The notes under the pieces: model-generated
Told to the model about the DNA's origin: nothing
The model's database searches: none
Seen by the model: only the letters and a program-made list of their open reading frames with translations
Shown here: positions 53,900 through 56,139 of the stretch, piece after piece
Numbering within the stretch: the stretch's first letter is position 1
Layout: the number at the start of each line of letters is the position of its first letter
Assembly: GCA_011364985.1 (NCBI GenBank)
Contig: RDOC01000004.1
Coordinates: 152,218-216,217, forward strand
Direction: 5' to 3'
Length of the DNA: 64,000 nt
Source of the DNA: Candidatus Thorarchaeota archaeon
GTDB lineage: Archaea > Asgardarchaeota > Thorarchaeia > Thorarchaeales > Thorarchaeaceae
Translations under genes and position numbers: made by a program

Positions 53900-54358
53900 T
53901 TGTATGGAGGAGTTTACTTGAAGAAAGTATTGTTGGGCTCGCTTATTGCAGCTGGTCGCAAAGGGATAACACCTGAGCAGTATCAACTCCATTCTGCGAT
54001 TTCCCTATTGCAGGACGATATTGAAGATAGCTCATCAATCGAAGACGATCAAGGATACAGCTATCGCCCCTATATAAAGGGGACATATAGTGATGAGCTA
54101 CAAAAGGATTTGGATTTACTTGGGATTCTTGGTGGAGTTAATGTATTGGAGGGGAGCCGAATATATGATCCCGTTGTTCCCTTTATTGAGGACTTGTACG
54201 CCGAATCCGTAAGAGACGAAAGACAAAGGAACGAGGAACAGGAGAGAATAAGTAAAATAATCGTTCCTTTATTAGAGATGAGTATTGACTCATTATTCGA
54301 TAAAGCATATACTTCTTTGAACGATCTTCTCGGGAGAAGATTTGATGTAGGTGCCTAA
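53900..54358 (+). CDS. YwgA/Panacea (SocA, DUF4065)-like winged-helix protein
   Basis: YSYRPYIKGTYSDELQKDLDLL matches the Y.F.....GPYS.EL..DL..L signature. Confidence 0.6.
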   Translation: MYGGVYLKKVLLGSLIAAGRKGITPEQYQLHSAISLLQDDIEDSSSIEDDQGYSYRPYIKGTYSDELQKDLDLLGILGGVNVLEGSRIYDPVVPFIEDLYAESVRDERQRNEEQERISKIIVPLLEMSIDSLFDKAYTSLNDLLGRRFDVGA

Positions 54359-54430
54359 TAGCTCAACATCCACCAATCATCTGATTTTTCTGTCTAAGGA
54401 GGGGATTATACGAATAGATTTCTGAGACCG

Positions 54431-55813
54431 ATGTATCACGATCCCATACATGGCACAGGAAGGGGGTTTGAAACAATAGAAAGTAGGCTGATTCACTGTG
54501 CAGAGGTTCAAAGGCTCCGTCATATTAAGCAGCTTTCAACGGTTTACATTCCATATCCAAATGCGAATCACACCAGATATGAACATGTTTTGGGTACTAC
54601 GCACCTAGTTAAGGTTATTCTAAGAAGGCTGCTTTATCAATCTGGAGAAGGTGTTCAGATAGCACTTCATGATGTGCTTCAGGCATCTGTCGCTGCAATA
54701 CTACATGATATCGGTCATAGCGCACTGGGGCATGGCTTAGAGAAATTTGCTCATCTAATAAAGAATAACAAACTTCGTGATAAAAACGTATCAAAAATGC
54801 TCTTAGAGGGAAAAATAGGAATACAACATCATTCTGTTCCTTGTGCAGCTGACATATTAGAAAGCCTTAAGAAAGACCCTCAGTATGGGGATCTTTTCGA
54901 ACCTAAAGATATTGCTAAAATAATCAACGGATTTCACCATAATCCAAAGAAGCTGTTTATTGCTAATCTAATCTCTGGAGCTATCGATGCAGATAGGATG
55001 GACTACTTACTTCGTGATGCGTATCATACAATTCCTGGTGGTCAGTATGACTTTGGAGGCATAATAGAGAACATGGCCGTCAGGGAGATAAGAGATTCTG
55101 AAGATTGTGTTTTGGCATTTTATGAACGAGGAATTCCTTCATTGGAAAGTCTGGTAACATCTAGAGATTTTATGTATACGCAAGTATATCACAATCGAAT
55201 CAATCGTATATCTCAAGCAATGATTGCACGTGCTCTTTACAAAGAACAGAAGTCATTGGGATCTCCTCTAGAGGACATCTGGCTTAAAACAGACAATGAA
55301 TTGCTAACCGCATTAGCTGAAACCGATGAAAAAGGGATTGCATGTCATATTGCAAGAAAGATCATTGAGTGTCGTCCCTATTATGTAATTCCTGAGCTTT
55401 GTTGGAGGTATGACTATCTGACATCTGATTCACGGAAGGAAATCGCTTTGATGAATCAGAACCCACAAAGATTGCTAGAATTCGAAGAGGAGCTAGCACA
55501 AGCTGTCAGTCTTAAAGATGGTTCAGTGATAGTCGATATTCTTCCTGATCCAAAAACCAGGGAGAGCAGTGCTGTGATCATCCCCACTCAAGAAGGCGAG
55601 CTAGTAGACTTAAAGAAGAAGAGCAAACTGGTAAACTATATGACATCAATGGAATACCTTACTGCAAGATCTGAGATAGTAGTCGGTATTGATATTGATG
55701 ATCTTGATGTGCTTCACTATCTAAGATCGCCCTCTGAAGACGAATCTAAAAGAATCTCCAAAATCCGAAAAGCGATTGAAGCTCGAATTGAGCTTAAGGA
55801 GGTTCTGGATTGA
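54431..55813 (+). CDS. HD-domain dNTP triphosphohydrolase (SAMHD1/YwfO-like)
   Basis: DPIHG, QRLRHIKQL, P.A.HTRYEH.LG, LHDIGH, IDADRMDYLLRD, R..MY.QVY. Confidence 0.9.
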   Translation: MYHDPIHGTGRGFETIESRLIHCAEVQRLRHIKQLSTVYIPYPNANHTRYEHVLGTTHLVKVILRRLLYQSGEGVQIALHDVLQASVAAILHDIGHSALGHGLEKFAHLIKNNKLRDKNVSKMLLEGKIGIQHHSVPCAADILESLKKDPQYGDLFEPKDIAKIINGFHHNPKKLFIANLISGAIDADRMDYLLRDAYHTIPGGQYDFGGIIENMAVREIRDSEDCVLAFYERGIPSLESLVTSRDFMYTQVYHNRINRISQAMIARALYKEQKSLGSPLEDIWLKTDNELLTALAETDEKGIACHIARKIIECRPYYVIPELCWRYDYLTSDSRKEIALMNQNPQRLLEFEEELAQAVSLKDGSVIVDILPDPKTRESSAVIIPTQEGELVDLKKKSKLVNYMTSMEYLTARSEIVVGIDIDDLDVLHYLRSPSEDESKRISKIRKAIEARIELKEVLD

Positions 55814-56139
55814 ACAGGTCAGATAATCTAACAAGTATCTGGCTAAGGATAATTCAGAAGGTTCAAGCATCAGATGAAGGAACAACCATGACATCTCTTG
55901 CAAAGGACCTGAAAGTCGATATAGGTCATTTAGACTGGCGCATTAATCATTTAGTCGAATCGGAGATTCTATCGACAAATGGAGAACGTATTTGGCCAAA
56001 TAAGAATCACTTCCTCTACCCGTCCGATGACGAAATCCTGCCGCCTGATCCTCCAATAAACTGGACTGAGCTCATTCTTGGATGGATTCTAGGACAGATA
56101 TCGCTTTACTCAGTCCTTGTTTTCTTCGGAATAGGCTAA
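55810..56139 (+). CDS. Winged-helix protein with C-terminal transmembrane helix
   Basis: TMTSLAKDLKV....L..RINHLVESEIL HTH; PPDPP linker then hydrophobic C-terminus; 4-nt overlap with the HD gene. Confidence 0.65.
   Translation: MNRSDNLTSIWLRIIQKVQASDEGTTMTSLAKDLKVDIGHLDWRINHLVESEILSTNGERIWPNKNHFLYPSDDEILPPDPPINWTELILGWILGQISLYSVLVFFGIG

Follow-up and report, generated by a model that had tools for sequence, protein, structure and literature searches.

A SAMHD1-type HD phosphohydrolase and a small DarG-like partner on an accessory island of a Thorarchaeota genome: a putative restrained nucleotide-depletion module

Three intact, closely spaced open reading frames (ORFs) of one orientation, at 53918-54358, 54431-55813 and 55810-56139 (here genes 1, 2 and 3), lie within a stretch of 64,000 nucleotides from a Candidatus Thorarchaeota archaeon (contig RDOC01000004.1, positions 152,218 to 216,217), which as a whole is referred to below as the window. 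They raise the question of whether this archaeon carries a defence or toxin-antitoxin system at this site and, if so, which of the three genes belong to it. An initial annotation, made from the letters of the window alone, had read the three genes as a candidate antiviral or toxin-antitoxin operon, composed of a YwgA/Panacea-like protein, a SAMHD1-like deoxynucleoside triphosphate (dNTP) hydrolase and a helix-turn-helix membrane protein. The window belongs to contig C17 of a 1.7-Mb metagenome-assembled genome (MAG) that is 74% complete; genes 1 and 2 are 72 nucleotides apart and the start of gene 3 overlaps the stop of gene 2 by 4 nucleotides, in line with the close spacing first described. 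Our results partly support the earlier reading: the pair formed by genes 1 and 2 is upheld, the triplet and the membership of gene 1 in Panacea are not, and a role in defence is plausible as judged from sequence comparison.

Gene 2 (54431-55813, plus strand) encodes a 460-residue HD phosphohydrolase of COG1078, a predicted dNTP triphosphohydrolase identified by Pfam and PDB matches. The protein exceeds the Pfam cut-offs for both HD (PF01966, 32.3 bits versus 22) and HD_assoc_2 (PF19276, 69.6 versus 23.1), and its best relatives in PDB are Aq_1910 (2hek), EF1143 and SAMHD1, with E-values from 1e-23 to 1e-20. Indeed, the H..HD..D metal ligands that the initial annotation had pointed out are present as H52, H92-D93 and D188 and, along with R49, H96 and H101, align with the catalytic residues of 2hek, EF1143 and SAMHD1. 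On these alignments gene 2 is a member of the SAMHD1/EF1143 family with its catalytic residues intact, in agreement with the SAMHD1-like character first ascribed to it, and dNTPs would be its substrate. It shares with SAMHD1, EF1143 and Aq_1910 a two-domain architecture, the H..HD..D site, the catalytic His and Arg and the helix of the QRLR allosteric site, but the identity is only ~30%, and gene 2 differs from them in lacking a SAM domain, in falling within a long-branch clade with two relatives and in having a DarG-like small partner. The PADLOC dGTPase model is matched at E 1.1e-5 and over residues 17-105 only, and the score against the anti-phage dGTPase family NF041026 is 21 bits versus a cut-off of 400, which places gene 2 outside the Dgt branch.

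The initial annotation had itself named a vertically inherited housekeeping HD gene as the finding that would contradict its reading, and this is not what the comparison with related genomes reveals. The genome holds four to five HD paralogues, and two core copies, corresponding to the genes on C15 and C11, are found in every genome of the genus. The closest relative of gene 2 is P0002 (64% identity), and the best match in 16 congeners reaches ~30%. In a maximum-likelihood tree obtained by a quick search, a clade of its own on a long branch (supports 99 and 100) unites gene 2, P0002 and a paralogue on C8 with 40% identity. Since there is no closer congeneric relative than ~30%, and since this long branch stands apart from the two core HD clades, gene 2 is an accessory paralogue and not a housekeeping orthologue. 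The C8 paralogue belongs to a region (L002:1441-2862, minus strand, and C8:4750-5727) of an 11-kb contig of 43.6% GC (guanine plus cytosine). A Ras-like small GTPase and a membrane protein lie immediately upstream of it, another HD protein, of 586 residues, is encoded nearby, and it is devoid of a YwgA-like partner; an 88-residue ORF beside it was considered as a hidden partner and rejected (hhalign 0.1%). This region may constitute a further accessory HD module that is built differently.

Gene 1 lies on the plus strand and was listed as an ORF spanning 53900-54358, within which the TTG at 53918 is more likely the real start, because GGAGGA is found 7 nucleotides upstream and the homologue P0122 begins at the same residue; from this start it would encode a winged-helix protein of 146 residues. 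A candidate archaeal TATA box, TTTATATATAA (53848-53858, plus strand), can be read ~60 nucleotides before this position. No sequence match to gene 1 was obtained in Pfam, NCBIfam or PDB, and the only homologues among ~15 billion proteins are P0122 (61% identity) and P0124, the latter being the single additional relative evidenced by an exhaustive HMMER search of 1.84 billion representatives. The protein had been described as YwgA/Panacea-like, and only the first of these affiliations stands. Model PF13274 (Panacea/SocA, DUF4065) is not matched by gene 1 up to E 10, and in place of the Panacea GPV signature one reads G-T-Y-S in gene 1, G-A-F-S in P0122 and G-V-F-S in P0124; YwgA-like relatives match SocA_Panacea at E 4e-4 to 0.5, below cut-off, and none of them passes any Pfam threshold. 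On the other side, when the gene 1 family is compared by hhalign with a profile of 13 HD-adjacent YwgA-like proteins, which excluded gene 1 and included Asgard members, the alignment covers 104 columns at 95.5% (E 1.3e-8); an earlier comparison with 8 YwgA-like sequences had been weak (29%). Within the GPYSxxL motif, Gly, Ser and Leu do not vary, and the canonical Pro of GPYS is replaced in the gene 1 family (G-T/A/V-Y/F-S). Twelve of the 13 YwgA-like proteins match PDC-M19A and, in the C-terminal portion of the model, PADLOC DarG (best 7.6e-19), and some of the 13 match LmuC as well.

The predicted structure of gene 1 points in the same direction. The AlphaFold2 (AF2) model has a pLDDT (predicted local distance difference test) of 86.7, which drops to 41 with an alignment of two sequences, and its top match in PDB is 7yk3_D, which is DarG in the DarTG complex of M. 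tuberculosis, with Z 10.6 over 137 of the 146 residues and a root-mean-square deviation of 5.2, the next-best structure having Z 8.2. Foldseek comparison of the model with DarG yields a probability of 0.93, a TM (template modelling) score of 0.50 and E 0.13, and other structural matches, which score lower, are generic winged helices and LmuC. The antitoxin-like nature that had been suggested for gene 1 is thus borne out at the level of the predicted fold, which is that of the toxin-binding domain of the DarG antitoxin. DarG's C-terminal domain is by itself able to bind and neutralise DarT (PMC7003065). Taking profiles and model together, gene 1 is a highly divergent protein of the YwgA-like, DarG-C-terminal-domain-like type and is not a Panacea member.

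The two genes are also set apart from their surroundings by genomic position. By tblastx, both sides of this region are perfectly colinear with two congeners, and in these relatives the ancestral order within ~1 kb is a gene, tRNA-Arg(GCG) on the minus strand, a 68-residue ORF, tRNA-Arg(CCG) on the minus strand and a gene for a 181-residue winged helix-turn-helix protein. With respect to this arrangement the present genome has two insertions, at ~48.3-53.4 kb and ~53.78-58.0 kb, and the second, which measures ~4.2 kb and is missing from 16 genomes of the same genus, contains the three genes together with pseudogene debris and a tRNA. The GC content of the three-gene stretch is 40.2%, versus 46-47.5% in the flanks, which confirms the AT-rich island noted at the outset. 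Considering that gene 1 is found in none of 60 relatives, that no close HD orthologue exists in 16 congeners and that the insertion is low in GC, genes 1 and 2 are accessory and island-borne.

The association of the two families is recurrent. The pair is found again in one other Thorarchaeota MAG, on a contig that encodes MHA2263088.1 and MHA2263089.1: the gene 1 homologue P0122 and the gene 2 homologue P0002 lie on the same 35-kb contig with consecutive NCBI accessions, as are those of P0125 and P0126; the closest homologues of genes 1 and 2, which are the only close ones, are annotated as 'Candidatus Thorarchaeota archaeon'. Of 80 metagenome HD loci, 8 have a small neighbour with the GPYSxxL motif, among them L025 and L026, which hold the two outside HD genes that are closest. 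The YwgA-like profile has matches in 117 of 400 Asgard genomes, and an HD gene is the immediate neighbour of six of the seven best short matches from these genomes. Where a genome of the family has more than two HD genes (G019, G021 and G024), the extra copies are those with a YwgA-like partner, and the core copies have none. The relative position of the two genes varies, with either order or a convergent arrangement, including convergent pairs that overlap.

The defence context anticipated by the initial annotation is found beside related pairs in two of the three contexts examined, G040 and G019: the former holds two HD plus YwgA-like pairs among NsnB/AriA/GajA-like ATPases, and in the latter the pair adjoins a type III methyltransferase. 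The G040 region (L128, G040:C12:130500-150400) resembles an Asgard defence island, in which the two pairs are 8 kb apart and are accompanied by a 313-residue tandem YwgA-like protein (PADLOC PDC-M19A, E 2e-20) and by two ATPases with matches to NsnB/AriA/GajA/OLD models (E 5e-50 and 4e-19).

These data bear on the possibility that gene 1, as a winged-helix repressor, controls transcription of the HD gene and gene 3 without any inhibition through protein-protein contacts. The N-terminal half of the gene 1 model is indeed a winged helix, matched at Z 6-8 by structures of PadR, MarR and ORC type, and gene 2 may have its own promoter, as a putative ATTATA element is located ~26 nucleotides before its ATG. 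However, the variable order and orientation and the convergent overlapping pairs would be odd for a repressor acting in cis and are normal for interacting proteins, and both the DarG C-terminal domain and LmuC, homologues of the family, act via protein contacts. We regard a repressor as quite improbable.

Comparison with known systems delimits what may be novel in the pair. In Bacillota-like loci (L049, L053, L062, L080 and L086) the same two families are adjacent and gene 1 aligns to the YwgA-like proteins encoded there, but HD precedes YwgA there, the GPYS motif has its canonical form and the pair is apparently inherited stably; the Bacillus ywfO-ywgA gene pair is of this HD plus YwgA-like composition. 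Stand-alone anti-phage dGTPases were reportedly described by Tal et al. in 2022. The only precedent for the pairing that we found in the literature is a prediction, the PanAT cluster pT33/T34 (Kurata et al. 2022), in which a Panacea (DUF4065) antitoxin is associated with an 'HD domain-containing protein' (CDD YdhJ; PMC8832971 supplement). As in genes 1 and 2, a small winged-helix protein of antitoxin type neighbours a COG1078-type HD protein, the two genes being tightly spaced or overlapping; the cluster differs in being from Firmicutes, in having a true Panacea domain and in the order toxin then antitoxin, whereas gene 1 neither matches the Panacea model nor has the GPV motif. In Clover, the dNTPase CloA is toxic in the absence of its restraining partner CloB (PMC12265719). 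The proposed module would share with this system, composed of the dGTPase CloA and the nucleotidyltransferase CloB, a nucleotide-depleting HD effector whose toxicity is restrained by a partner. The differences are that CloA, as Dgt, belongs to the dGTPase branch, which gene 2 matches weakly, and that restraint in Clover is exerted by an enzyme-made nucleotide signal and not by a binding protein. DarTG (7yk3) is related to the locus through gene 1, whose model takes the DarG C-terminal domain's fold along its entire length and whose wider family matches the PADLOC DarG model; yet gene 1 stands alone and its neighbour is an HD hydrolase. Neither a DarT ADP-ribosyltransferase nor a DarG macrodomain occurs in the three ORFs or elsewhere on the island, and the locus is not a DarTG system.

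We tentatively propose, with a confidence that falls a little short of even, that genes 1 and 2 constitute a mobile module for dNTP depletion, kept in check by a DarG-like partner, with a defence or toxin-antitoxin-like function; that the two were acquired horizontally as a two-gene conflict module we judge to be similarly credible, again slightly under an even chance. The free gene 2 enzyme would hydrolyse dNTPs and thereby starve the DNA replication of a virus or of the cell. Gene 1 would bind the enzyme and keep it inactive, a predicted binding and inhibition which is modelled on the DarG C-terminal domain with DarT and on PanA with PanT, and infection or loss of the partner would release it, with an antiviral or addiction outcome. 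This proposal results from the accessory and mobile status of the pair, from a variable gene order which is typical of interacting pairs of toxin-antitoxin type, from the defence neighbours seen elsewhere, from the Clover precedent and from the PanAT prediction.

Several observations weigh against it. The support for the pair and for the homologous pairs is computational, and the substrate is not fixed by the sequence. The AF2 alignment of gene 1 held YwgA-like sequences, which possibly pulled the model towards a DarG-like fold, a concern that is partly offset by an independent Atlas model made from the single sequence, whose neighbours are fused to Macro (DarG), HicB-like and UPF0175 antitoxin domains. 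Decaying genes fill the island, so that the module may be in the course of being lost, and PADLOC, which had been put forward as a check on the initial annotation, recognises no known system at the locus. Two further points, the third context (G024), which shows no defence genes, and the coherent, short-branched tree clade formed by the Bacillota-type HD plus YwgA-like pairs, which look stably inherited, are also those that favour a different explanation, as stable inheritance fits a housekeeping regulatory subunit equally well.

According to this explanation the pair would be an accessory enzyme of the dNTP pool, unconnected with conflict, together with a subunit that regulates or targets it, an extra metabolic paralogue acquired by transfer, which we consider rather unlikely; gene 1 would then adjust the activity or the location of the HD hydrolase, for instance allosterically or by tethering it to DNA via the winged helix, a role to which we attach the same low probability. 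COG1078 proteins are ordinary enzymes of dNTP homeostasis in many organisms, two core copies being present in every genome of the genus, and many of the structural matches of gene 1 are generic DNA-binding winged helices. Nevertheless, it is the extra, patchy HD copies that have the partner, which the core copies lack; the position on an island, the low GC and the extreme divergence of gene 1 are more in keeping with conflict genes; and the structure matched over the full length is a toxin-sequestering domain, which is more than a winged helix. A regulatory subunit remains a serious alternative to the restrained module.

Gene 3 (55810-56139, plus strand) is an orphan ORF of 109 residues, in which a winged helix is weakly indicated and the C-terminal tail (residues 88-106) is hydrophobic. 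It starts with TTG, preceded at 7 nucleotides by the strong Shine-Dalgarno sequence AAGGAGG; Pfam HTH_24 is matched at E 0.03, below cut-off, the Atlas winged-helix leads score 0.80-0.83, and the tail reaches 2.02 in a 19-residue Kyte-Doolittle window. No homologue was found in 5.8 billion proteins, in its own genome or in the retrieved loci. Because of this, the three genes do not form a conserved unit, contrary to what had been supposed, and the role of sensor or regulator initially assigned to gene 3 receives no comparative backing. Gene 3 is probably a lineage-specific add-on outside the core pair, encoding what its sequence suggests to be a tail-anchored winged-helix protein.

The orphan status of gene 3 and the pseudogenes flanking the three ORFs would also agree with a scenario in which all three are non-functional leftover cargo of a decaying island and gene 3 is a chance ORF, as we estimate that a stop-free run of 109 codons is expected ~0.4 times by chance (six frames, 4 kb, 40% GC). 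Against this, genes 1 and 2 are both intact and no catalytic residue is lost, they are 61-64% identical to the pair of another MAG with undisrupted frames, and genes 1 and 3 have strong, correctly spaced Shine-Dalgarno sequences, all of which makes leftover cargo a very unlikely account.

The pseudogene surroundings that had been described are real in part. Upstream there is a frameshifted TnpB relic (52359-53180; Cas12f1-like_TNB at E 8.6e-4), and between it and the three genes lies an intact ORF of 68 residues (53409-53615, minus strand), which is syntenic in congeners, where it has 62-66% identity and sits between their two tRNA-Arg genes, and which matches no family. Downstream, a P-loop-like stub of 50 residues ended by a stop (56379-56531, plus strand) resembles, as read from the sequence, the N-terminus and P-loop of a STAND/AAA ATPase (GIGGIDKT); it has no match in Pfam or PADLOC and is probably a pseudogene fragment. 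It is followed by a frameshifted pseudogene in three ORF fragments (56716-57474, plus strand), corresponding to the C-terminal 245 residues of a 586-residue protein that is intact in G129 (L106:1486-3246, minus strand; residues 338-582 aligned, 34% identity, tblastn E 2.5e-37). The intact G129 protein belongs to no Pfam family, weaker relatives of 965-974 residues are found in another Asgard family, and a search of the genome for paralogues of the pseudogene found none. At the right edge of the island, 58013-58558 (minus strand) encodes the conserved 181-residue protein, with a ribbon-helix-helix-like N-terminus and a winged helix (HTH_24, E 9.5e-6), the latter also giving a weak match to PADLOC CARF3. 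The other insertion (48709-53408) holds an ABC (ATP-binding cassette) transporter ATPase and permease (49413-51135), small membrane proteins and the TnpB relic, within the same conserved flanks.

The att-like tRNA fragment reported near gene 1 is indeed derived from a tRNA, but it is no att repeat. Located at the left edge of the island (53703-53748, minus strand) and ending ~170 nucleotides upstream of gene 1, this tRNA-Arg(CCG) remnant has a well-kept 3' half and an unrecognisable 5' half; its final 24 nucleotides are identical to the 3' end of tRNA-Arg(CCG) of the congener G011, and its tRNA pattern was absent from all shuffles (0 of 100). An intron-containing or split tRNA at 53.7 kb was ruled out, as neither ARAGORN, run with and without introns, nor Rfam made a call. 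As judged from its sequence, the remnant is a whole ancestral tRNA-Arg(CCG) gene that has decayed and not a clean att repeat. At the right edge, a functional tRNA-Arg(CCG) of foreign type (57786-57863), called by ARAGORN and Rfam, is on the plus strand, opposite to the ancestral gene; its 3' half is absent from 13 congeners, is found exactly in G023, from another genus of the family, and with at most 2 mismatches in other genera. A second remnant (48365-48410, minus strand), in which the GCG anticodon loop is still visible, accompanies the other insertion, and plus-strand tRNA-Arg genes at 48631-48708 and 57786-57863, of a type that other genera of the family have but that was not found in 13 congeners, replace both decayed minus-strand genes (GCG and CCG). 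This is a xenologous replacement of tRNA genes tied to the insertion of the islands. A classic att site with an integrase was rejected, as what remains is an ancestral gene in decay, whose strand is not that of the new tRNA, and no integrase-like ORF exists within 53.7-57.9 kb; the combination that defines a tRNA-targeting integrative element, an integrase and direct att repeats derived from the target tRNA, is thus missing.

Depletion of nucleotides is an established antiviral strategy, carried out by SAMHD1 in animals and by dGTPase, dCTP deaminase and Clover in bacteria, and to our knowledge the restraint of a toxic nucleotide-depleting enzyme has been reported for few systems only. In the present case it is the SAMHD1 branch, and not the Dgt branch, that is paired with a homologue of a toxin-sequestering domain. 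Such a pairing suggests a simple and testable mechanism of restraint, and the pair is small and easily tested in E. coli or Bacillus. The locus is distinguished by how far gene 1 has diverged, by its place in a Thorarchaeota genome whose tRNA-Arg genes here have been replaced wholesale, and by the orphan gene 3. More speculatively, and with a confidence lower than that given to the restrained module itself, SAMHD1-type dNTPases clamped by a DarG-C-terminal-domain-like protein could represent a widespread class of nucleotide-depletion immune or addiction systems, with many mobile copies in Asgard archaea. Mobile accessory copies of the pair in these organisms bear on the age of SAMHD1-type restriction: if the proposal is true, regulated dNTP starvation in the manner of SAMHD1 would already be a conflict strategy in the archaeal relatives of eukaryotes.

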